Shown here: in pieces, positions 2,039 to 43,750 of the stretch
Position numbering within the stretch: position 1 is the first letter of the stretch
How the letters are laid out: every line of letters starts with the position of its first letter
Program-made: the position numbers and the translations under genes
Source: a virus
DNA: 43,750 nucleotides
IMG/VR virus record: IMGVR_UViG_3300033143_003067
Strand: one strand, 5' to 3'
Notes under the pieces: model-generated
Seen by the model: the letters and a program-made list of their open reading frames with translations, nothing else
The model's database searches: none
What the model was told of the DNA's origin: nothing

Positions 2039-3358
2039 ATGCCAATTACTACATCACAAGGAAAAATGCCTTCAATAGGAGAAGTTTATATAGAAAAAAC
2101 TTATTCTGGCCAACCGGGTTATTTTAGGATTTTCAAAATGACAGAACAAGGCCCAGATTTTTATAAAGAAGATAAAGCTCATTTTTATCAGCCTTCTACT
2201 GGAAAGATATATAAATCGGGAACTACTACTCAATTTGAAGATACAGGAGAGAAATTAGACACTACACCTCCTAAATATAATACAGCAGATGTAAGTTCTT
2301 TTGCTGAAAGTGCTGAATTTGCTCAAATACAGGGAGTTCCATATACAGGAAGGCAACGATATACAGAACAGCAATTAACTGGGGAAGTTCCTAAAATAGG
2401 AGAAGTTGGAGGAGTTGGAGTGCCTAGAGGAACTACGCCTACTCAAGGAGGAGGACAACCTACAACTCACGAAGTTAGAGAGGGAGAAACGCTTTCTCAA
2501 ATAGGACAGAGATACGGAGTAGATTGGAGGCAGATAACAGGATTTCGTTCTGGAGACCCGGACCTTATTTATCCGGGTGAAGTTTTAAATATACCTTCTG
2601 GTGCTGGAGGACAAGTTCCAGGACAAATCGCTCCTACTGGGCAACCAGGCGACACAGGAGGTGTTTCAGGGAGGGGAATAGTAGGAGGAGATGGTGGAGT
2701 GCCAATATCAAATATCCCTGAAGAAATAAGAAATATGTTAAGTCCTGAAGAATTATCATTCTGGGAGCCGATGTGGGCATTTTTAGCTCAAAAACAAGAA
2801 CAAGGAAAAGAAATTCCGCCAGTTCTTTCACCTGCTGAATTAGATTCACTTTGGCAAGAAGCAAAAGCAGATCCAGTCATTTCCAAATATTTTTCTGATC
2901 AATTAAGAATAGGAGAAACAAATTTAACTAATATGATAGCGGATGTAGCCGAAGAAAGTGGACAGTGGAGTCGTGAACAAAGTGAGGTATTTAAGCAACA
3001 ACGAATAACAGGAGCAGAAGAAGCTGTAGCTGGAGGCAGAGCATTTTCAGGCTACCGTCAACAAGCCCGAGAGCGTCTTCAAAGGGAACAAACAGGTATA
3101 GTTTCTTCAACAAGGCGACAATTACAAAGACAATTACGCCAAGCAGGACAAGCATTTGAAACTGCGTTTGGAACTGCTCAACTTCCAACAATGGGATTAC
3201 CTTTTACTGATCCTCTTACTAAAAAAACTGAACAACTACAATTTCAATCATACGGAGATATTGCTGGAGGTGCGGCAACCGAACAATTATCAGCAGAAGA
3301 ACAAAGGTATCAAGATTTAATAAGAGAAAGTTTACAACAGAAAGGAGCTTACTATTGA
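2039..3358 (+). CDS. LysM-domain virion protein (439 aa) with Gly/Pro-rich linkers and a Gln/Arg-rich C-terminal helix
   Basis: aa 143-186 HEVREGETLSQIGQRYGVDWRQITGFRSGDPDLIYPGEVLNIP fits the LysM peptidoglycan-binding motif. Confidence 0.75.
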   Translation: MPITTSQGKMPSIGEVYIEKTYSGQPGYFRIFKMTEQGPDFYKEDKAHFYQPSTGKIYKSGTTTQFEDTGEKLDTTPPKYNTADVSSFAESAEFAQIQGVPYTGRQRYTEQQLTGEVPKIGEVGGVGVPRGTTPTQGGGQPTTHEVREGETLSQIGQRYGVDWRQITGFRSGDPDLIYPGEVLNIPSGAGGQVPGQIAPTGQPGDTGGVSGRGIVGGDGGVPISNIPEEIRNMLSPEELSFWEPMWAFLAQKQEQGKEIPPVLSPAELDSLWQEAKADPVISKYFSDQLRIGETNLTNMIADVAEESGQWSREQSEVFKQQRITGAEEAVAGGRAFSGYRQQARERLQREQTGIVSSTRRQLQRQLRQAGQAFETAFGTAQLPTMGLPFTDPLTKKTEQLQFQSYGDIAGGAATEQLSAEEQRYQDLIRESLQQKGAYY

Positions 3359-3373
3359 CAATTTAATAAGGAA

Positions 3374-3464
3374 ATCTTATAATTAAAGTAAAGCTGTTGG
3401 TTTTTATTATGCCCCCGCATAGCCAACAGCTTAGCGGGGGCGTTTATTAACTAATTATAAGATT
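3374..3464 (+). promoter_or_regulatory. Structured leader, copy A, in front of an HNH gene: TATAAT box, two interleaved GC-rich helices, U-tract
   Basis: H1 is AAGCTGTTGG 3391-3400 / CCAACAGCTT 3423-3432. H2 is GCCCCCGC 3411-3418 / GCGGGGGC 3434-3441, followed by GTTTATT. The conserved blocks recur at 14858-14949. Confidence 0.6.
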
Positions 3465-4190
3465 ATGATTAAAAGAAACTCAAAAGGACAATTTGTTAAA
3501 GGAATTATTCCACATAATAAAGGAAAGCAATGGTCTAAAAAGCATAAAATAAAACTTAAGTTAGCTTGGATTAAAAGAAAGGAAAAAGGATATATAACTT
3601 GGAATAAGGGAAAACATATAAAAGTTAACGATGCTTTAAAAATATGGAGAGAAAATGGAGGTCAACCTTGGAATAAAGGTAAAAAAGAATTACAAGTTGC
3701 TTGGAATAAAGGAAAGGAAATGTCTAATAAATATAGAAAAAAATGTAGTAAAGCACAAAAAGGAAAAAAACTTTCTAAAGAAACAAAAAATAAATTAAGT
3801 AAAATAGCAAAAGAAAATGGATTTGGTCAATGGATGAAAGGTAAGAAGCTTTCTGAAGAAACAAAAAGGAAATGTAGTGAAGCACATAGAGGAAAAAAAT
3901 CATATAACTATAAAGGTAATTCTAAATTATGTCATCTTATAAGGAATTGTTATAAATATAAACAATGGACTAAAGCAGTTTTTGAAAGAGATAACTATAT
4001 TTGCCAAAAGTGTAAAATAAGAGGAGGAAAACTCCACGCTCACCATATTAAAAAGTTTAGTTTAATTTTAGAAGAAAATAATATCAAATCATTAAAAGAA
4101 ACACTTAATTGCGAAGAATTATGGAATATAAATAATGGCATAACATATTGTAAAATATGCCATAAAATAATACATAAAAAATATGCCTAA
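3465..4190 (+). CDS. HNH homing endonuclease with N-terminal NUMOD3-like repeats
   Basis: C-terminal CQKCK..HAHHI..NNGITYCKICH matches the HNH motif. WNKGK and KGKKLS.ETK.K modules repeat in the N-terminal part. Confidence 0.85.
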   Translation: MIKRNSKGQFVKGIIPHNKGKQWSKKHKIKLKLAWIKRKEKGYITWNKGKHIKVNDALKIWRENGGQPWNKGKKELQVAWNKGKEMSNKYRKKCSKAQKGKKLSKETKNKLSKIAKENGFGQWMKGKKLSEETKRKCSEAHRGKKSYNYKGNSKLCHLIRNCYKYKQWTKAVFERDNYICQKCKIRGGKLHAHHIKKFSLILEENNIKSLKETLNCEELWNINNGITYCKICHKIIHKKYA

Positions 4191-5514
4191 CCCTACTAAT
4201 TTATACGAATACTATACTTCAAAAGGTCAACAATTACCTTCAATTCAAGAAAGGGGTGTTTTATATTCTCAACAAGGATTAGGAACTGGATATACTGGAA
4301 CAGCAGAACAAAATACTGCTTTACTTCAAAAACTATCGGTAGGAGATATTTCAGGAACTATGACTATTCCTCCGGTAGGAACTACACCTACTACTCCAAC
4401 TCCACCACTAGCAGGAGGAACGCCAGAAACGACAGGAGGACAAACAGGTATGGGAACTACTGATCCTATGAGATTTTATACAATAATGGATCAGATGAGT
4501 CAGAAGCTTAATAAAAATCAAGAATTAGTTGATATGAGGAATAAGGTGTTTACTCATTTATACGATAGGCCTTTGACAGATGAGGAGAGAGGTGCTTTGA
4601 CTCCGGAGCTTCAGCACGCAATAGAAACCAATGACTTTAATTTGATAAATTTTCACGTAAGAAAAATTAATGACGAAATTAAGGGTAGGAAAGACACTTT
4701 AGATCAGAGTATTGAATTCCTTTCAAGAGGATATGAATTACAACAGCAACAAATTGAAAGCCAAAGAGAACGAGCAGAAAGTATTTTAATGAGTGGTTTA
4801 GAAAAATATGGAGGCGATATATTAAACATTTATAGTCCTGAACAAATAGAACAATTAAGAAATATGGGATATGACATTGCTGGAATTGCCGGATTGCCAA
4901 GTGTAGAAGAAATAAAGGCAGGATTAAAGGGGGGAATTGGAACAATTCCCGGACAAACAATATCCTATGAACAATTATCTCCTACTGCTAAATTAGTTGT
5001 TGATGGAACTTTTAAACTATCTGATATTACTCCTACTCAAAAACAAGCGATAGCCAGTGAATTAGTTGCTTATGGATTTACTTATGCTATGGCTCAAGCA
5101 GATCAACAGAATGTTAGTTATATTAAAAATCAGTTAATGGGTGGAGGAGAAATAACATCTGATGAAAGTGTATTAGGTTCTTGGAAGAAAATACCCGATC
5201 AATATAAAGGACTTATTCAAGGTGCTTGGGGAGAACTTATAGGAAAAAAGATAAGTCCTGAAGTAGCGAGATTTAAAGCTTCTCAAGGAATAGTAGGTAT
5301 GCAACTTACACGATTATATGAAAAGGGTCGTATTTCCGATCAAGACAGGATATTTTATTTAAGTTTAATGCCTAATCTTTATATGAATGAAGCCGCAGCA
5401 GTAGCTGGGGCTAATGAATTAGTAAGATTATTACAAGAAAAATTAACTAATCAAGTAAATGAATTAGAGGGTTTGGGAGCAACCCAAAATGATTGGGAAT
5501 ATATCCCAGAATAA
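4183..5514 (+). CDS. Virion-associated protein of unknown function (443 aa), with a Thr/Pro/Gly-rich linker
   Basis: Track ORF. It overlaps the HNH stop by 8 nt and lies in the structural operon. Confidence 0.75.
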   Translation: MPNPTNLYEYYTSKGQQLPSIQERGVLYSQQGLGTGYTGTAEQNTALLQKLSVGDISGTMTIPPVGTTPTTPTPPLAGGTPETTGGQTGMGTTDPMRFYTIMDQMSQKLNKNQELVDMRNKVFTHLYDRPLTDEERGALTPELQHAIETNDFNLINFHVRKINDEIKGRKDTLDQSIEFLSRGYELQQQQIESQRERAESILMSGLEKYGGDILNIYSPEQIEQLRNMGYDIAGIAGLPSVEEIKAGLKGGIGTIPGQTISYEQLSPTAKLVVDGTFKLSDITPTQKQAIASELVAYGFTYAMAQADQQNVSYIKNQLMGGGEITSDESVLGSWKKIPDQYKGLIQGAWGELIGKKISPEVARFKASQGIVGMQLTRLYEKGRISDQDRIFYLSLMPNLYMNEAAAVAGANELVRLLQEKLTNQVNELEGLGATQNDWEYIPE

Positions 5515-7009: not shown

Positions 7010-7225
7010 TCATAATTTTTTTAGATTTCTTCTAACTTTATTTGCTTTTATTTCCTCCTTCTGTATTTTCTCTGCATCTTTATTAGCTTCAAACCCAGAC
7101 ATAAAAGCATTTCTATCTTTAGGAGAAAGATGTTTCCACCATTTCTTCCCTTTATAAATATATCTTAATTCTTTTCTTATTCTTGGATGTTTAGACATAA
7201 TAGTAGTCCTTCTTAATAAGCCCAT
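7010..7225 (-). CDS. Small basic protein (alternative start ATG 7198, MSKHPRIRK)
   Basis: Track ORF. It is the only - strand ORF in an otherwise non-coding gap of the + strand block. Confidence 0.45.
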   Translation of the reverse strand: MGLLRRTTIMSKHPRIRKELRYIYKGKKWWKHLSPKDRNAFMSGFEANKDAEKIQKEEIKANKVRRNLKKL

Positions 7226-7622
7226 AGATAAAAGCTCCTTCTACTTTCTTTCTTTAAAATAGAAGCAAATAGATTAAATAATAAAGAACAATGCCTTAAT
7301 GTATTACAACAAAGAAAGAAAATTTGACGGAAACATCAATTTAACCTTTAAACCGTCATAGTTCTTTTCCCAGATTATCTTACAGTTCAGAGCTGTTAGC
7401 GATAGATTATCCACTCAGCTAAACTTATCCTTTAATCTTTGAGCCGAATTATTCACGCTCTGCTTAAGATTAAAGACAATTAGCGCGAAAAAGAGCTATT
7501 GGTAACCAAAAAGGCTACCAAGCTGATATAGAACTTGATAGCCAAATTGGTCTTTCTTCGTTATAATATGTTAATAAGCTCTATATCAACTTATATTCCA
7601 ATTATATACCAACCATAAATAT

Positions 7623-8177
7623 ATGTCAATAGTAAAAAAATTAAGCGACCCCAAAACATTCTCCAAAATAATGTCCGTCCTAAAAATCCCTACCGAACAA
7701 ATAGAGGGAGAAGACTTTTCATATAATCTAAAATGGAATGGCAAAGAGTTTGAAAATGGAGATTATCCCGAATTAGTTAAAGCTACATCCGATAAATTAA
7801 AGAGCTTAATGGAAAAAACAGAATATCGTGGGCAAGTTTCATTAAAAGGAAAGCTTAATGATACCACTATTTCTTTATCAGAACTTCAATTTAATACTTC
7901 AGAAGCCTTAGAAGTCCCTGAAGAAAAGAAATCTGATAAGGATTTAATACTAAAAGAGAATGAAGGTCTTAAACAAAGAATGAAGCAAAATAGAGAAAGG
8001 TTAAAAGAGATAGATAGAATAGAGCAAGGTGAGAAGATAGAAAAAGAAATAACAGAGAAGATTAAAAAAATATATGAGAAAAAGTTAGAAGAAGAAAAAA
8101 AGAAAATGGATGCTCATATTAAAAAGATTAAAAAAGCTATTAAAATAACAATAAAAGAAGATGATGAATCCAACTAA
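7623..8177 (+). CDS. Lys/Glu-rich coiled-coil protein (184 aa)
   Basis: Track ORF that follows a ~400-nt non-coding region. The C-terminal half is K/E heptad-like. Confidence 0.7.
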   Translation: MSIVKKLSDPKTFSKIMSVLKIPTEQIEGEDFSYNLKWNGKEFENGDYPELVKATSDKLKSLMEKTEYRGQVSLKGKLNDTTISLSELQFNTSEALEVPEEKKSDKDLILKENEGLKQRMKQNRERLKEIDRIEQGEKIEKEITEKIKKIYEKKLEEEKKKMDAHIKKIKKAIKITIKEDDESN

Positions 8178-13538: not shown

Positions 13539-13928
13539 ATGTCATTCCAAAAAGGATTGTCAGGATTTTTAGGAAAGCATCATACAGAAATGAAAATGAG
13601 TGAAAATAGTTTTATGAAAGGAAAGTTTAACGAAAATTGTCCAAATTGGAAGGGAGGAATTAGAAAAATAAATAATGAAAGAAATGATAGTAAATATCAA
13701 TGGTGGGTCAATCAAGTCAAGAAAAGAGATAATCAAATTTGTAAGTTAAAAGATAAAAAATGTTTTGGATATAATATAGCTCATCATATTAAGGGTTGGT
13801 CACTATATCCAGAATTAAGATATAAAACTAATAATGGTATCACATTGTGCCATTTTCATCATCCTCGCAAGAGAGTTGATGAACAAAAACTTATACCATT
13901 CTTTAATAGTTTGGTGGAGGTTAAATGA
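13539..13928 (+). CDS. HNH endonuclease (129 aa)
   Basis: CKLKDKKC..AHHIKGW..NNGITLCHFHH matches the HNH motif. It resembles the C-termini of 3465.. and 14947... Confidence 0.85.
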   Translation: MSFQKGLSGFLGKHHTEMKMSENSFMKGKFNENCPNWKGGIRKINNERNDSKYQWWVNQVKKRDNQICKLKDKKCFGYNIAHHIKGWSLYPELRYKTNNGITLCHFHHPRKRVDEQKLIPFFNSLVEVK

Positions 13929-14797: not shown

Positions 14798-14845
14798 AAG
14801 TCAAGGGGGGAAATTCTGAACTTCCCCTCAGTCCCCCCTTGACTT
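14798..14845 (+). terminator. 13-bp perfect inverted repeat hairpin downstream of 14572..14784
   Basis: AAGTCAAGGGGGG 14798-14810 pairs with CCCCCCTTGACTT 14833-14845. TTCCCC in the loop (14822-14827) can pair instead with GGGGAA. No clean T-run follows. Confidence 0.5.
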
Positions 14846-14857
14846 ACTTATTCTAAT

Positions 14858-14946
14858 ATCTTATAATTAAAGTATCCTGCGAGGAACATAAACTATTTAT
14901 GCCCCCTTAATCCTCGCAGGTTCTGGGGGCGTTTAATTATAAGATT
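14858..14946 (+). promoter_or_regulatory. Structured leader, copy B, in front of an HNH gene
   Basis: H1 is CCTGCGAGGA 14876-14885 / TCCTCGCAGG 14911-14920. H2 is GCCCCC 14901-14906 / GGGGGC 14925-14930, followed by GTTTAATT. The flanking blocks match copy A. Confidence 0.6.
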
Positions 14947-15507
14947 ATGCCAACAGGAATATATAAACATAAACCGCTTTCTAAAGAACATAAAAGAAAA
15001 ATAAGTGAAGCGATGAAAGGAAAGAGACCCCAAGATTATAAAAATTGGTGTCCAAGTTGTGGAATGAAAGGAAAAGTTGGTTATTGGAAAGGAAAAAAAA
15101 GACCATTGGCAGGACAATGGATGAAACAATTTAAAGGAAAAGGACTTCAATCTTGGATGAATATAAGTGGTTTAAAAAAAGGACAAGGTTGGAATAAGGG
15201 AGGAACTTCATGGAGTAAAGGTAAAAAATTATCTAAAGAACATGTAGAAAAAGTAAGACAATCTTTAATTAAAAGATCAGATAGAATTGGAAGGAAAAAA
15301 TATATAAGACCTAAACATAATACTCATTGGAAATATAGAGAATGGAGAAAATTAGTTTATGAAAGAGATAATTATAAATGTTGGATTTGTGAAGCTACTA
15401 ATTTGAATGCTCATCATTTGAAGTCGTGGGCTAAATATCCAAAATTAAGATACAAAGTAAATAATGGTTTAACTCTTTGTGAGTTTTGTCATAAAATATA
15501 TGCTTAA
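14947..15507 (+). CDS. HNH homing endonuclease with NUMOD3-like N-terminal motifs
   Basis: CWICEATNLNAHHLKSW..NNGLTLCEFCH matches the HNH motif. The N-terminus has MPTGIYKHKPLSKEHKRKISEAMKGK and WNKGG/SKGKKLSKEH repeats. Confidence 0.85.
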   Translation: MPTGIYKHKPLSKEHKRKISEAMKGKRPQDYKNWCPSCGMKGKVGYWKGKKRPLAGQWMKQFKGKGLQSWMNISGLKKGQGWNKGGTSWSKGKKLSKEHVEKVRQSLIKRSDRIGRKKYIRPKHNTHWKYREWRKLVYERDNYKCWICEATNLNAHHLKSWAKYPKLRYKVNNGLTLCEFCHKIYA

Positions 15508-17683: not shown

Positions 17684-17854
17684 TCATCGTTTGTCATCTT
17701 TAAGCCATTTTAGGAGTTTGATATAACAAGGTTTGCATAAATCAAAAGAATCTTTAAAATACCAACTTACTTCTTTGCGGGCCATTTTTTCAATTCTTAA
17801 TCTAAGTTCATCTTTCATTTCCTTTTTACACTTATCACAATAATGTTTAGTCAT
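17684..17854 (-). CDS. Zinc-ribbon microprotein (56 aa)
   Basis: Hand-translated codon by codon as MTKHYCDKCKKEM...LCKPCYIKLLKWLKDDKR, with CxxC...CxxC. Confidence 0.55.
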   Translation of the reverse strand: MTKHYCDKCKKEMKDELRLRIEKMARKEVSWYFKDSFDLCKPCYIKLLKWLKDDKR

Positions 17855-17856
17855 AG

Positions 17857-18219
17857 TTATTTAATTATATATTCCAGTTTTCTTACTAATTCTTCTTGAG
17901 ATTCTTCTAAATCATCAGTAGTAATATATCTTGTTTCCCCGTTATAAGCTAACCTTCCAATTAAAAGATGTATCATTTCGTGTTTAGCCACTATTTTAAT
18001 ATCTTCATCTGTAATTTTTTGGTAATTAACCCACTCTTCTGACAAAGTAATAGTAGCTATATATCCATTAAGATTATGATTTATACTCGCCCTATTTGTG
18101 TTTTTTTTCGCCCATCTAAAATGTAATTCCCAATTATGTAATTCAAATCTATCTTGCCAATATAGACATTCTTTTTTAAAATTATCAAAATGTTTATTTG
18201 TTAGTTTCATATTTGGCAA
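17857..18219 (-). CDS. Putative Zn-metallopeptidase-like protein (HExxH)
   Basis: It carries the VAKHEMIHLLIG motif. This is a track ORF of 120 aa. Confidence 0.5.
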   Translation of the reverse strand: MPNMKLTNKHFDNFKKECLYWQDRFELHNWELHFRWAKKNTNRASINHNLNGYIATITLSEEWVNYQKITDEDIKIVAKHEMIHLLIGRLAYNGETRYITTDDLEESQEELVRKLEYIIK

Positions 18220-20011: not shown

Positions 20012-20176
20012 TTAGGTTATTTTCTTTAATAATAAACAAACCCCGAAAATACCAATAATAAACCCTCCTAAAAAACTGAAAATATATGAAATTGGCGGTT
20101 CAATTAAAACATTCATTAAATATCCCCATAATCCTCCCGCTATAAGTATAATAATTATCTTTATTGCTATTTTCAT
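20012..20176 (-). CDS. Two-TM small membrane protein (54 aa)
   Basis: Hand-translated as MKIAIKIIIILIAGGLWGYLMNVLIEPPISYIFSFLGGFIIGIFGVCLLLKKIT; 55 codons checked. Confidence 0.5.
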   Translation of the reverse strand: MKIAIKIIIILIAGGLWGYLMNVLIEPPISYIFSFLGGFIIGIFGVCLLLKKIT

Positions 20177-20188
20177 AAGGTTATTAGG

Positions 20189-20422
20189 TTAGCCAGAGCC
20201 ATAGCCAGAGCCAGAGCCATAGCCAGAGCCATCGCCAGAGCCAGAGCCATAGCCATAGCCATCGCCATAGCCATAGCCATCGCCATAGCCAGAGCCAGAG
20301 CCATCGCCATAGCCATCGCCATAGCCAGAGCCATAGCCAGAGCCATAGCCATAGCCATAGCCAGAGCCATCGCCAGAGCCATCGCCAGAGCCACGCATAT
20401 ATTCTTTATCTATTGTTTCCAT
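20189..20422 (-). CDS. Glycine-dipeptide repeat protein, METIDKEYMR-(G-[S/D/Y])x33-G
   Basis: Track ORF. Its ATG overlaps the end of the upstream gene, and its stop lies 12 nt before the next ATG. The codons form a strict (GGC-TCT/GAT/TAT) array. Confidence 0.55.
   Translation of the reverse strand: METIDKEYMRGSGDGSGDGSGYGYGYGSGYGSGYGDGYGDGSGSGYGDGYGYGDGYGYGSGSGDGSGYGSGSGYGSG
20192..20392 (-). repeat. About 33 tandem hexamers, GGC-[TCT/GAT/TAT] on the - strand
   Basis: On the + strand this reads as AGAGCC / ATCGCC / ATAGCC units without interruption. Confidence 0.9.
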
Positions 20423-20769
20423 ATTTTTACTGAAGCTATACTTTCTTGAGCTTCTTTAGAACAATCCAAGATTTCTATTGCTTCTAATAGTTCAACACTA
20501 TCTACTTCTACTGGAAACTTACAATTTTCAGGTTTGGATACTCCTTCCATTGCTAATTGGGATAAAGAAGCCGCACCTTCCCAATACCACAATCTACGAG
20601 CTTTTAATAATATAACTTCTTTGTTTTTTCGGCTTTTTAAATATCCAGCAAAAACTCCCGCTGAATAAGTGCGAATAATCACATAAGGCATTCCTTTTAA
20701 AGAAATAGCTTTTGTTTTAACTTCGCTTTGTGGGACATATTTTATCCCGTCTATTGTTATTGTTTTCAT
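20410..20769 (-). CDS. Hypothetical protein (119 aa; RLWYWEGAASLSQLA motif)
   Basis: Track ORF in the early operon. Confidence 0.65.
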   Translation of the reverse strand: MKTITIDGIKYVPQSEVKTKAISLKGMPYVIIRTYSAGVFAGYLKSRKNKEVILLKARRLWYWEGAASLSQLAMEGVSKPENCKFPVEVDSVELLEAIEILDCSKEAQESIASVKIWKQ

Positions 20770-20799: not shown

Positions 20800-20979
20800 T
20801 TAGTCATAGTTAGAAAGCAGTTTAAAGCTCCAGCTCCCGCTCCCGCTCCTGCTACTGCTCCTGCTACTGCTCCCGCTCCAGCTCCAGCTCCTGCTCCAGT
20901 TCCTGTTCTCGCTCCCGCTCCAGCTCCAGTTCCTGCTCCAGCTCCAATTTAATATATTATAAGAATTTATTAAAAACAT
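20800..20979 (-). CDS. Repeat microgene unit A. The ATG frame gives MFLINSYNILNW + W/S/R-rich (59 aa). The +1 frame gives Gly-Ala repeats. The frame is unresolved.
   Basis: Hand-translated. 20 GGAGCN-type hexamers lie at 20826-20946. All three - strand frames are open. Confidence 0.35.
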   Translation of the reverse strand: MFLINSYNILNWSWSRNWSWSGSENRNWSRSWSWSGSSSRSSSRSGSGSWSFKLLSNYD

Positions 20980-20994
20980 ATTACCAAAAAGCAG

Positions 20995-21135
20995 TTAAAA
21001 GCTCCAGCTCCTGCTCCTGCTCCAGCTCTCGCTCCTGTTCCCGCTCCAGTTCCAGCTCTTGCTCCCGCTCCTGCTCCCACTCCTGTTCCCGCACCATCTC
21101 CAATTTAATATATTATAAGAATTTGTTAAAAACAT
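20995..21135 (-). CDS. Repeat microgene unit B, paralogue of unit A (ATG frame 46 aa). The frame is unresolved.
   Basis: The ATG lies 1 nt after the stop of 21137..21448. 17 hexamers lie at 21001-21102. The 44-nt head is identical to unit A apart from 1 nt. Confidence 0.35.
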   Translation of the reverse strand: MFLTNSYNILNWRWCGNRSGSRSGSKSWNWSGNRSESWSRSRSWSF

Positions 21136-21136
21136 A

Positions 21137-21448
21137 TTACCAATTGGGAGACCAAAAACTCTCAATAGCATTTCTCATAACATATACATTACTTGGAAGT
21201 TCTTGCTTATCTACTGGATTACTTGCTTTAAGTTCGCCAGTTTCATAAATTATGCTTGCTTTTGTAAGCTCTATGTAATTAGCATTTATGCTTTCGACCT
21301 TTCCGTAATAAATATATCTCGCGCATTGAAAGAGATATGTCTTGCCAATAAGCTCATCAAGGTTCTCTATTTCTTGAACCTCACTTTCGCCTGATTGTTC
21401 TTTTATCTTGTCATAGGTTTCATCTGAAACCTCAATTGTTTTTGTCAT
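21137..21448 (-). CDS. Hypothetical protein (103 aa)
   Basis: Track ORF. Confidence 0.65.
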   Translation of the reverse strand: MTKTIEVSDETYDKIKEQSGESEVQEIENLDELIGKTYLFQCARYIYYGKVESINANYIELTKASIIYETGELKASNPVDKQELPSNVYVMRNAIESFWSPNW

Positions 21449-28966: not shown

Positions 28967-28994
28967 TTGACTTTCTCTGTCAGTATGCTAAGAT
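28967..28994 (+). promoter_or_regulatory. Sigma70-like promoter candidate for the tRNA-like RNA
   Basis: TTGACT (28967-28972), a 16-nt spacer, then TAAGAT (28989-28994). Confidence 0.3.
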
Positions 28995-29034
28995 AGAATC
29001 ACTCAAGCCATAGAAATTACCACTTGGGTTTTAT

Positions 29035-29252
29035 GGGATAGTTGCTAGTTAGGAAGAACTAGATAGGAAGCAAGATGACAACTTACTTCTGAAATTATAA
29101 TTAGGGTTGCGAATCCTTTTGGTGTTGCCCATCATTTCGTCTGGGGGTTAAAAGTTTCTAAGCCGAAGAGCCCGAAAGGGTGGGCGAAAGCCCCGTTCGG
29201 CAAAGAAGCGAACCAGTAAAAACCAATGGGGTGCGAATCCCCATCTATCCCT
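29035..29252 (+). ncRNA. tRNA-shaped structured RNA with a 135-nt insert (three-way junction with two GAAA tetraloop hairpins). It is not a canonical tRNA.
   Basis: The acceptor-like helix is GGGATAG 29035-29041 / CTATCCC 29245-29251. The T-arm-like hairpin spans 29226-29244 (loop TGCGAAT). The anticodon-like loop AUGACAA spans 29075-29081. The three-way junction spans 29162-29201. Confidence 0.5.
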
Positions 29253-29297
29253 TACTATCATGACAAATCAAAATACTCATTTTAATAAAGATGAAAC

Positions 29298-29327
29298 AGC
29301 CCTTTAAAAGTAGGGTTTTTATTTTTT
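29298..29327 (+). terminator. Intrinsic terminator candidate after the structured RNA
   Basis: AGCCCT 29298-29303 pairs with AGGGTT 29312-29317 (one G.U) and is followed by TTTTTATTTTTT. Confidence 0.5.
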
Positions 29328-32309: not shown

Positions 32310-33866
32310 ATGGACGAAAAAATAATACTATTCAATAAAACAGCTAAAGACAAATTATTAAAAGGAATAAACAAAGTAGCAGACGCAGTAAAGATAACGC
32401 TGGGTGCTACTGGCAGGAATGTAGTAATAAAAGATGAAGTAGTCCCAGCTTTCTCCACGAATGACGGAGTATATATATCCCGTAAGATACACTTAAGAGA
32501 TGAAGTAGAAGAAGCTGGAGCTGATATTATAAAAGGAGTAGCAGAACATACTAACGAAGCAGTAGGAGATGGCACAACTACTTCAATCGTCTTGGCTCAA
32601 GCTCTTATTAACGAAGGATTAAAGTATAAGGTAAATCCCTTAAAGATAAGAGCTGGAATGAAAAAGGGATTAGAAGTTCTTATCAAAGAGATAGAAAAGT
32701 TAGCCAAGCCTATTAAAACAAAAGAAGAAATGAAGCAGATAGCCACTATATCTGCTGAAAACGAGGAGATAGGAGAGCTTATCGCTGATACTATCAAGGA
32801 AGTAGGGCAAGATGGTGTTATCAAGATAGAAGAGTCTAAGACATTTGGATTAGAGAAAGAAATAGTGGGAGGTATTCAGTTTAATAGTGGATATATATCT
32901 CCATATATGATAAATAAGTTTGATAAATTAGAAGCTGAATATGAAGATCCATTGTTCTTAATAACTGATAAAAAGATTTCTATGGCTAAGTCTGAATTGA
33001 TGCCCATATTAGAGAAAGTAGCCCAATCAGGTAAGAAAGAGCTGGTAGTCATAGCAGAAGATATAACTGATTCAGCTTTAGCTACCTTAGTAGTTAATAA
33101 AGAAAGAGGTTTGTTTAATGCTCTGGGGATAAAAGCACCCGATAAGGAAGTATTACAAGATTTAGCTCTTATTACTGGAGCAACGCTAATATCAGAGGAA
33201 ACAGGATTAAGATTAGAAAGTTTTGAGATGAAACATCTGGGTAAAGCTAAGAAAGTAATTTCCACTAAAGATAATACTACGATTATAGGGGGTAAGGGTA
33301 ATGTTAAAGATAAAATTAAGCAAATTAAGGCAGAAATAGAGAAATCTAAACAATCTGCTGATTTATTAGAAAGATTAGCTCGTCTTACAGGAGGAATAGC
33401 AGTTATTAGCGTAGGCGCTGCTACTGAAATAGAGAGAAAAGCCAAGCAACACAAGGTAGAAGATGCTCTGAATGCTACTAAAGCTGCTGTTGATGGAGGG
33501 ATTGTGGCAGGGGGGGGAGTTGTGTTGTTAAGATTAAGGAAAACAAAGATGTATGCTTATGATAAAGATGAAGAAACAGGAAGTAAGATATTAAAAAAGG
33601 CATTAGAAGCTCCTATTAAGCAGATGGCAGAAAACGCTGGATTAGAGGCAGATAAACTTATAGCAAGTATATTAGAAAAAGACGAAATAAATTACGGATA
33701 CAATTTTAATACTAATAAATACGAGGATTTAGTTGAGAATAAAGTAGTTGACCCAGCTAAGGTCCTAATATCTACATTAACCAATGCTGTTTCAGCTGCT
33801 GGTATATTTCTTACAACAGATTGTGTTATAGCAAAAAAAAGGTTGCCATTAAATAATGGCAGATAA
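32310..33866 (+). CDS. groEL: Chaperonin GroEL (518 aa, no C-terminal GGM tail)
   Basis: AVGDGTTTSIVLAQAL, VISVGAATEIERKAKQHKVEDALNATKAAVDGGIVAGGGVVLL and VVDPAKV are GroEL signatures. Confidence 0.92.
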   Translation: MDEKIILFNKTAKDKLLKGINKVADAVKITLGATGRNVVIKDEVVPAFSTNDGVYISRKIHLRDEVEEAGADIIKGVAEHTNEAVGDGTTTSIVLAQALINEGLKYKVNPLKIRAGMKKGLEVLIKEIEKLAKPIKTKEEMKQIATISAENEEIGELIADTIKEVGQDGVIKIEESKTFGLEKEIVGGIQFNSGYISPYMINKFDKLEAEYEDPLFLITDKKISMAKSELMPILEKVAQSGKKELVVIAEDITDSALATLVVNKERGLFNALGIKAPDKEVLQDLALITGATLISEETGLRLESFEMKHLGKAKKVISTKDNTTIIGGKGNVKDKIKQIKAEIEKSKQSADLLERLARLTGGIAVISVGAATEIERKAKQHKVEDALNATKAAVDGGIVAGGGVVLLRLRKTKMYAYDKDEETGSKILKKALEAPIKQMAENAGLEADKLIASILEKDEINYGYNFNTNKYEDLVENKVVDPAKVLISTLTNAVSAAGIFLTTDCVIAKKRLPLNNGR

Positions 33867-43404: not shown

Positions 43405-43750
43405 TGCCTGTTAATCCTTTAAAAATACGAGATTTCAGCAGAGGAGTTATAAGAAAATCATCTGTAAGTAATGATTTAGTTCCTTTAAATAGTGTAGCTC
43501 ATAGCATAAATGTTAATTATGATGAGATTATAGGGGCAGCAAAAGTAAGAAAGGGAACTACTCTGTTAGGAGCAGTAGTATCAGCTGGTTCAACTCCTCT
43601 TGGTTTAACTGAATTCGTAGGAGCAAACGACTCTCCTAATACTTTAATATCCATATTTACAGGAGCGCTTAATGCTACGATATATTTCTACGATACTGCT
43701 ATATCTGATTGGGGAACTTCTACGGTAACTAATCTTGATAATAACGCTAA
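43404..43750 (+). CDS. 5' part of the junction-spanning virion protein gene (continues at nt 2 after circularisation)
   Basis: ATG 43404-43406 overlaps the upstream TGA (ATGA). The frame is open to the end of the window and in phase with 2..1249. Confidence 0.8.
   Translation, partial: MPVNPLKIRDFSRGVIRKSSVSNDLVPLNSVAHSINVNYDEIIGAAKVRKGTTLLGAVVSAGSTPLGLTEFVGANDSPNTLISIFTGALNATIYFYDTAISDWGTSTVTNLDNNA
43637..43750. repeat. Terminal direct repeat, copy 2
   Basis: Identical to nt 1-114. Confidence 0.95.

Follow-up and report, generated by a model that had tools for sequence, protein, structure and literature searches.

The stretch of DNA considered here (the window; 43,750 nucleotides of the IMG/VR virus record IMGVR_UViG_3300033143_003067) carries two HNH endonuclease genes, each preceded by the same leader of approximately 110 bases, in which a strong predicted promoter is combined with three RNA helices that compete with one another, termed H1, H2 and P1. 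The leader is a real conserved cis-element. A nuclease open reading frame (ORF), either of the HNH type, of the endonuclease VII type or of an unannotated family, lies directly behind all 14 copies recovered and behind two diverged leaders. It is proposed that the promoter and the three helices act together in cis as a portable leader that controls the expression of free-standing (homing-type) nuclease genes, a reading that is given about an even chance of being correct. The leader appears to be undescribed, being absent from Rfam and from the papers searched. The novelty lies in the combination of parts of known kinds, in the bistable interleaved pair of helices and in the exclusive tie to diverse nuclease genes of uncultured phages.

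Homing-type nucleases are abundant in phage genomes. Outside the T4-like phages, we know of almost nothing on how phages avoid harm from their own nucleases of this type, and the regulatory signals of Patescibacteria phages are, to our knowledge, essentially uncharted. If the proposal is true, the leader represents a second, independent solution to nuclease control, namely a start-masking helix that holds a promoter, plus an attenuator. The conserved bistable helix pair adds unusually clean covariation. Movement of the leader between unrelated nuclease genes would amount to a sequence handle for cassette assembly and exchange, and a compact promoter with a self-insulating leader is a possible part for synthetic biology.

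The leader in the window and in related phages

The window covers one complete phage genome, assembled as a circle of 43,636 base pairs (bp), with bases 1-114 recurring at 43637-43750. It has a G+C content of 33%, originates from metagenomes of the Joint Genome Institute (JGI) and has no close relative among deposited phages. Both nuclease genes are on the plus strand: HNH-A (3465-4190) encodes 241 amino acids with NUMOD3 repeats and an HNH domain, and HNH-B (14947-15507) encodes 186 amino acids. A first-pass annotation had noted one leader before two diverged HNH genes, and this is borne out, as the proteins are 34% identical over 118 amino acids. The conserved blocks of the two leaders are 100% identical, the longest unbroken identity being 17 nucleotides (nt). 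The blocks and helix arms that the annotation quoted all lie at the coordinates given there, in both copies.

The conserved block ATCTTATAATTAAAGTA contains the -10 box of a near-perfect sigma-70 promoter. In copy A (3355-3383, plus strand), a -35 box TTGACA (3355-3360), a 17-nt spacer and a -10 box TATAAT (3378-3383) match the consensus at 12 of 12 positions, and the stop codon of the upstream ORF (3356-3358) sits within the -35 box. Copy B (14839-14867, plus strand) reads TTGACT, a 17-nt spacer and TATAAT, with 11 of 12 positions matched. Of the three highest-scoring sigma-70 matches across the 43.6-kb genome, two lie in these leaders. At the usual spacing, starts are predicted at ~3390 and ~14874, 1-2 nt before H1. 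The leader had initially been taken to begin at 3374; the block that begins there is indeed conserved, but it is mainly promoter, and the transcript probably begins at H1. The third match, a perfect TTGACA-17-TATAAT, lies at 7601-7629 on the minus strand and points leftward inside the plus-strand late operon. Some 370 ORF-free nt follow on its 3′ side and then a 71-amino acid ORF (7225-7010); this minus-strand region (7010-7600) may represent an antisense moron or else a non-coding RNA.

Downstream of the promoter, all arms are read on the plus strand. The H1 5′ arm of copy A, AAGCTGTTGG (3391-3400, extended to 3402 by U.G and U-A pairs), is followed by an A/U-rich linker L1, TTTTTATTAT (3401-3410), the H2 5′ arm GCCCCCGC (3411-3418, extended to 3409 by U.G and A-U pairs), the H1 3′ arm CCAACAGCTT (3423-3432) and the H2 3′ arm GCGGGGGC (3434-3441), which together with the GTTTATT behind it (3434-3448) resembles an intrinsic terminator. 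Copy B has the same arrangement, with H1 formed by CCTGCGAGGA (14876-14885) and TCCTCGCAGG (14911-14920), and H2 by (AT)GCCCCC (14899-14906; core GCCCCC, 14901-14906) and GGGGGC(GT) (14925-14932; core GGGGGC, 14925-14930). The gap between the 3′ arms of H1 and H2 is 1 nt in copy A and 4 nt in copy B. Compared with shuffled sequence, the leader RNA folds with z = -4.4 to -4.5 in both copies. The H1 arms have no further match anywhere in the genome, which ruled them out as guides.

The first block also pairs with its exact reverse complement just before the ATG. This long-range helix, P1, which like the promoter is absent from the first-pass annotation, comprises 12-14 bp in the window copies and is found in the minimum free energy fold of both. 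In copy A the 5′ arm ATCTTATAATTA (3374-3385, plus strand), which holds the -10 box, is the reverse complement of TAATTATAAGAT (3452-3463, plus strand), and the helix is present in the fold of 3374-3467; the 3′ arm is followed by a T and the ATG of HNH-A (3465-3467), without a Shine–Dalgarno sequence. In copy B the 5′ arm ATCTTATAATTAAA (14858-14871, plus strand) pairs over 14 bp with the U-tract TTTAATTATAAGAT (14932-14945, plus strand), which doubles as the 3′ arm and is likewise followed by a T and the ATG (14947-14949). An antisense promoter in the right arm was ruled out, there being no conserved minus-strand -35 box. Copy B is additionally overlapped at its -35 box by a terminator-like poly-G/poly-C hairpin, GTCAAGGGGGG...CCCCCCTTGAC (14800-14843, plus strand), with a T-rich tract after it. 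The G-run of this hairpin could instead pair with an inner TTCCCC, and the arrangement is like a PeSL terminator-promoter junction.

The leader family has 14 members: the two window copies (winA and winB), L068, L075, L093, L100, L104, L108, L110, L130, L167, L170, L227 and L230. At least eight relatives (L068, L075, L093, L100, L104, L108, L110 and L130) came from a metagenome scan with the two 10-nt P1 arms and a free interior. The matches were mostly AT-rich noise; these eight members were chosen by eye and confirmed by nhmmer and a covariance model. The P1-arm scan of IMG/VR contributed L167, an element also listed as L168, and L170, and that of 185,579 bacterial and archaeal genomes gave 12 chance matches and no member. 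Exact scans of IMG/VR with block 1 or with the H2 pattern returned chance matches only, and an arm-independent pattern found only the L167/L168 element, already known. Since the pattern scans required P1, a protein-homology route through relatives of the L167 nuclease was also followed. This provided the full members L227 and L230. With covariance model R1, to whose training they did not contribute, they score 63 and 59 bits. It also provided two diverged leaders, L185 and L206, which keep interleaved H1 and H2 just before the ATG without the family P1 arrangement; L206 retains a TATAAT and L185 has a long U-tract. The H1 pairing is maintained in the homologues.

The phages with related leaders have AT-rich genomes of ~40-77 kb. 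Source names of other members of the L167-type protein family include Patescibacteria, Parcubacteria and Staskawiczbacteria, which suggests hosts among the candidate phyla radiation (CPR) bacteria. The leader probably belongs to phages of uncultured Patescibacteria. In one member (L108, 71-143), the leader begins directly 3′ of a tRNA-Pro(UGG) gene. In several lineages, relatives of the L167-type nuclease of 223-238 amino acids (L213-L223) are also inserted between ssb and rpsR, the gene for ribosomal protein S18; the contigs, from metagenomes and from Logan, have the gene content of a bacterial chromosome. In most of these relatives the ATG is directly preceded by a 6-bp hairpin, ATTCTT/AAGAAT, and in L213 a ~62-nt leader is duplicated in tandem. 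Searches of Rfam 15 at gathering thresholds, HEARO and omega RNA included, gave no match to the window, and relaxed searches with both leaders reached at best 22 bits against thresholds of 50-56. A ribozyme or known motif was ruled out by these results.

The same leader stands before at least five nuclease families. The genes behind it encode NUMOD3-HNH proteins (winA and L093), other HNH types (winB, L110, L130 and L170), endonuclease VII types (L108 and L100) and an unannotated family with the motif SYW-IDH-PKS...NLQP (L068, L104, L167, L227, L230 and a truncated L075). In L075 the leader is kept though the ORF is reduced to 43 codons. Leader cores are 79% identical between L108 and L170 and 78% identical between L093 and L075, in each case before unrelated ORFs (endonuclease VII versus HNH in the former pair). 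The similarity of leaders is therefore independent of the ORF family, and leader and ORF have probably been recombined. HNH-A has no homologue of more than 55% identity in a set of 5.8 billion proteins, and the leader is present in none of 31 loci of HNH-A and HNH-B relatives in IMG/VR; it is thus not a property of those protein families. A third HNH gene of the window (13539-13928), also absent from the first-pass annotation, is without the leader. Its start context, the 12-mer AAACTATTTATG, recurs inside copy B, where it forms the linker plus ATG (14890-14901).

It has to be considered that the leader is mainly a module for recombination and portability, like the promoter-early stem-loop (PeSL) elements. 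These are ~100-bp mobile cassettes of T4-like phages with a strong sigma-70-like promoter and a stem-loop, which are implicated in shuffling (PMC2839356, PMC4122927). The conserved blocks would then be short homologies for ORF swapping and the hairpins insulating terminators, with no switch involved. The range of nuclease families, the closest cores standing before unrelated ORFs, and the full identity of the window blocks against the divergence of the proteins all fit such a module. The same is true of the poly-G/poly-C hairpin over the -35 box of copy B, which is as in PeSLs, and of other relatives of the L167-type nuclease, which bear true PeSL-like leaders (terminator, -10 box and ATG, in that order). 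However, a plain insulator needs no two interleaved, exclusive helices that covary in every copy, and the 17-nt identity between the window copies is short for homologous recombination. A search for empty sites recovered neither an empty site nor a recombinant junction, and the stem-loops of PeSLs precede or span the promoter rather than following it. A portability module is unlikely to be the main explanation; it is compatible with a role of the leader in expression control and may well apply alongside it.

Covariation, strand and mutual exclusion of the helices

The order of parts is invariant in all 14 members: H1 5′ arm, A/U linker, H2 5′ arm, 0-4 nt, H1 3′ arm, 0-5 nt, H2 3′ arm, TT(T)(T)AAT and ATG. 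The linker L1 measures 8-16 nt and is U-rich in 13 of the 14, usually ending in TAT(G); in L230 it measures 5 nt. A -35 box, TTGAC(A/T) or TTGATA, stands 16-17 nt ahead of TATAAT in every member, and none of the searches required it. Of 12 members analysed for this, 11 have the predicted start at -1 to +4 nt relative to the first pair of H1.

The sequence of H1 differs in every copy, and its arms are even flipped in L108 and L170. In the alignment of 14 sequences, 98.5% of the H1 cells are paired, a share that falls to 21-55% when the partner columns are slid. The complete compensatory covariation first noticed between the two window copies extends to the family, with changes on both sides in 10 of 10 pairs and pairing kept in every further homologue. 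The interleaved order of arms had been noticed as well, and H2 also covaries, with double changes in 5 of 7 pairs and one position that runs through C-G, U.G and U-A. These pair counts come from covariance-model alignments, which lean towards the structure tested, a MAFFT alignment being out of structural register. Shuffles of each sequence were therefore added as an independent control. For each of 12 members, only 0-3 of 300 dinucleotide-preserving shuffles reached the combined length of its best pair of interleaved stems.

The helices could in principle act at the level of DNA, as a cruciform, a protein-binding palindrome, a homing site of the nuclease or an operator. All three are inverted repeats in DNA, and I-TevI is known to repress its own promoter via an operator (PMC2988022). 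The pattern of wobble pairs speaks otherwise. Extension of the helices gains 37 pairs if G.U is allowed and 11 if A.C is allowed, the latter being equivalent to G.U on the other strand. Pairs of the G.U type are found inside H2 in L130, L104 and L170 and, twice, inside P1 in L230, where DNA would have mismatches. The wobbles thus place both H1 and H2 in the plus-strand RNA. Furthermore, as the sequence of H1 is different in each copy, it would be unreadable by any protein; the spacing of the P1 arms varies over 52-66 bp and the nucleases are of unrelated families. A DNA-level element is consequently regarded as very unlikely.

The invariant arm order and the covariation of both helices would also be expected of a static H-type pseudoknot, in which the two helices coexist and might, for instance, offer a standby site to the ribosome or block it. 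The dimensions of the linkers oppose this. The loop L3, which would have to cross the 10-14 bp of the H1 stem, has 0-5 nt, and L2 and L3 together have 0-8 nt across the members and 0-2 nt in four of them (L093, L075, L108 and L170). Such linkers are too short for a full pseudoknot and H1 and H2 exclude each other, as had been suspected from the window copies. The static structure is a highly improbable alternative. In RNA that ends at the H2 3′ arm, H1 has calculated energies of -14.8 to -24.9 kcal/mol and H2 of -13.4 to -21.5 kcal/mol, the two states differing by 0.6-8 kcal/mol.

H2 has the form of an intrinsic terminator, in agreement with the first description of it: a G+C-rich stem of 6-10 pairs is directly followed by UUU(U)AAUUAU. 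The same form is seen in a reference terminator of this phage at 16951-16985, where plus and minus transcription units converge and AAAAGTCCCC, an 11-nt loop and GGGGACTTTT make up the hairpin and its tail.

Proposed mode of action

The host polymerase, unmodified, would start at the sigma-70-type promoter of the leader, so that the nuclease gene is transcribed on its own. H1 would be the 5′-terminal hairpin of this transcript, with the start usually within 0-4 nt of it, and may protect the 5′ end. As it is transcribed first, it would delay or prevent the formation of H2. Where H2 does form, it could act with the U-tract as a weak intrinsic terminator or attenuator at which some polymerases stop. 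This would cap transcription into the nuclease gene and into the late genes behind it. In the window copies there is no terminator between the nuclease gene and these late genes. The stop codon of HNH-A shares bases with the ATG of the next gene (TATGCCTAA, 4182-4190), and that of HNH-B overlaps the ATG of an adjoining peptidase gene with a peptidoglycan-binding domain (TATGCTTAA, 15499-15507).

P1 is the most likely translation-gating part of the leader, H1 and H2 being less likely. It spans 10-15 bp across the family and stops 0-4 nt short of the AUG in 14 of 14 members. Its 5′ arm contains the -10 TATAAT, with the predicted start 5-7 nt beyond the arm. Late, polycistronic read-through transcripts would carry both P1 arms, masking a start site that has no Shine–Dalgarno sequence. 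As only transcripts started upstream include the 5′ arm, those derived from the leader's own promoter would have an open start site. Shine–Dalgarno sequences are generally missing upstream of the genes of this phage, so that an open start site matters. In 12 of 12 members, the read-through transcript is predicted to expose the start site less than the promoter transcript does. As an outcome, the nuclease would be made briefly and at a low level from its own promoter, with no contribution from the operon around it.

Several observations weigh against this scheme. P1 is A/U-rich and only marginally stable (-9 to -15.5 kcal/mol); with long flanks, it is in the minimum free energy fold of 5 of 12 members and missing from that of the other 7. 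Its invariance is uninformative in the 12 of 14 members that were selected by a pattern demanding both P1 arms, and independent support comes only from the two window copies, L227 and L230. In L230 the helix persists although two of its pairs are G.U and an outer A-U pair has become U-A; in L227 it persists with a bulge. The promoters were scored against the sigma-70 consensus, which may not be that of the host, perhaps a CPR bacterium. The promoter is also of the host type, with -35 and -10 boxes, whereas the comparable hairpins of T4 hold a late promoter, TATAAATA, that is dependent on gp55. The U-tract of H2 is interrupted and its loop is long (11-20 nt), so that at most partial termination is expected. 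H1 is transcribed before the H2 3′ arm and in 9 of 12 members is also more stable than H2, which may therefore rarely terminate. L185 has H1 and H2 without a promoter and without P1, from which it follows that the two helices must have a role independent of both. Finally, no input that tips the balance between H1 and H2 was found in the leaders, nor a conserved upstream ORF, nor a conserved loop besides a loose UAUUUAU(G).

It has been postulated beyond this that H1 and H2 form a regulated two-state RNA switch, a new class serving selfish nuclease genes in phages of CPR bacteria. A trans-acting input, which might be a phage or host protein, a modification of the polymerase or RNA cleavage in the A/U linker, would time expression, and the conserved blocks would also capture new nuclease ORFs. 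This extension is tentative and rather doubtful. The first-pass annotation had considered either a switch that gates nuclease expression or a cassette boundary that travels with the endonuclease. The travelling part is upheld by the nuclease genes behind every copy and behind the two diverged leaders; the regulated switch did not fare as well, given the lack of a sensor in the leader, the modest U-tract and the early formation of H1. An upstream ORF in the linker was rejected as a candidate, as 5 of the 12 members examined lack the AUG and neither frame nor length is constant.

A strong promoter with a terminator-like hairpin within ~55 nt is also what a small RNA gene of ~55-60 nt would look like. 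It would consist of the promoter, H1, H2 and the U-tract and have a function of its own, with the nuclease expressed by read-through; retention of the leader in L075 with its 43-codon ORF agrees with this. Against such a gene, the members found always have an ATG 1-5 nt past the 3′ end of the element, the variable part is self-complementary and leaves no free guide, the H1 arms are unmatched elsewhere in the genome, and L185 is without a promoter. A small RNA gene is considered quite improbable, and the proposed control of nuclease expression in cis is retained in the comparisons below.

Genomic context and known systems

The ORFs that flank HNH-A (2039-3358 and 4183-5514) contain a LysM domain and a conserved C-terminal domain, which are united in a single protein directly in P0123 and probably in P0122. 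At the edges of the HNH-A cassette, the stop codon of the upstream ORF falls within the -35 box, and the downstream ORF begins with an ATG that overlaps the stop codon of HNH-A. From its position the cassette may have split one gene. For the gene 3′ of HNH-A, IMG/VR contains no relative, and distant homologues resemble it only in a C-terminal domain.

Other features of the genome were observed. At 28967-29325, a promoter-like TTGACT-16-TAAGAT with an upstream TG is followed by ~250 nt of unusually G+C-rich non-coding sequence (~29090-29250), which is closed by a terminator-like hairpin (29298-29325); this region has no Rfam match and no tRNA. Approximately 45 bp (17851-17895) are missing in L046, a near-identical contig from another sample, in what looks like a population indel polymorphism. 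A GroEL/Cpn60-like chaperonin ORF (32310-33866) is 43-45% identical to matches in phage records, some of them annotated as GroEL/Cpn60. Long arrays with periodicities of 12 and 18 nt (20161-20441 and 20821-21155) lie among small minus-strand ORFs.

The individual parts of the leader have counterparts in known systems. The classical attenuators (trp, T-box and riboswitch platforms) also have two exclusive helices, the second of which is G+C-rich and followed by U residues. In the nuclease leader, however, H1 and H2 share no nucleotides and their exclusion is topological, arising from interleaving. The attenuators and riboswitches further possess a sensing element, whereas no leader peptide, tRNA- or ligand-binding domain or conserved aptamer-like core was found in the leader.

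Attenuating terminators near the 5′ ends of mobE and segF in T4 lower the transcript level (PMC2988022). The likeness lies in a weak terminator, putative in the leader, ahead of a free-standing endonuclease gene; the hairpin of the leader differs in its location in the untranslated region and in its conserved competitor helix. The PeSL cassettes have in common with the leader a G/C-tract stem-loop, a strong sigma-70-like promoter, the start codon of the next gene and a length of ~100 bp. Both are repeated within a genome and stand before accessory genes; PeSLs are implicated in modular shuffling, in which the leader may also take part. Unlike in PeSLs, H1 and H2 lie downstream of the -10 box and inside the transcript in all members, and only copy B has a hairpin over the -35 box. 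The leader also contains two interleaved helices plus a long-range helix, and its partners are nucleases only, whereas PeSLs partner assorted ORFans.

The masking hairpins of the T4 type are found at e, soc, 49, I-TevI/II/III, segB and Aeh1 mobE, where a hairpin hides the translation start and a promoter lies in its 5′ strand (PMC3014915; PMC2988022). The strands of the leader helix differ from these in being 52-66 nt apart and in enclosing two more competing helices. No Shine–Dalgarno sequence is involved, and the phages are unrelated. The plan is nevertheless alike: the promoter is in the 5′ strand and the 3′ strand lies over the translation start, so that upstream transcripts would be masked and the gene's own transcripts open. 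In the modelled folds of both window copies, the start region of upstream transcripts is paired, as in the T4 hairpins. In both cases the arrangement serves homing-endonuclease genes that are embedded in other operons.

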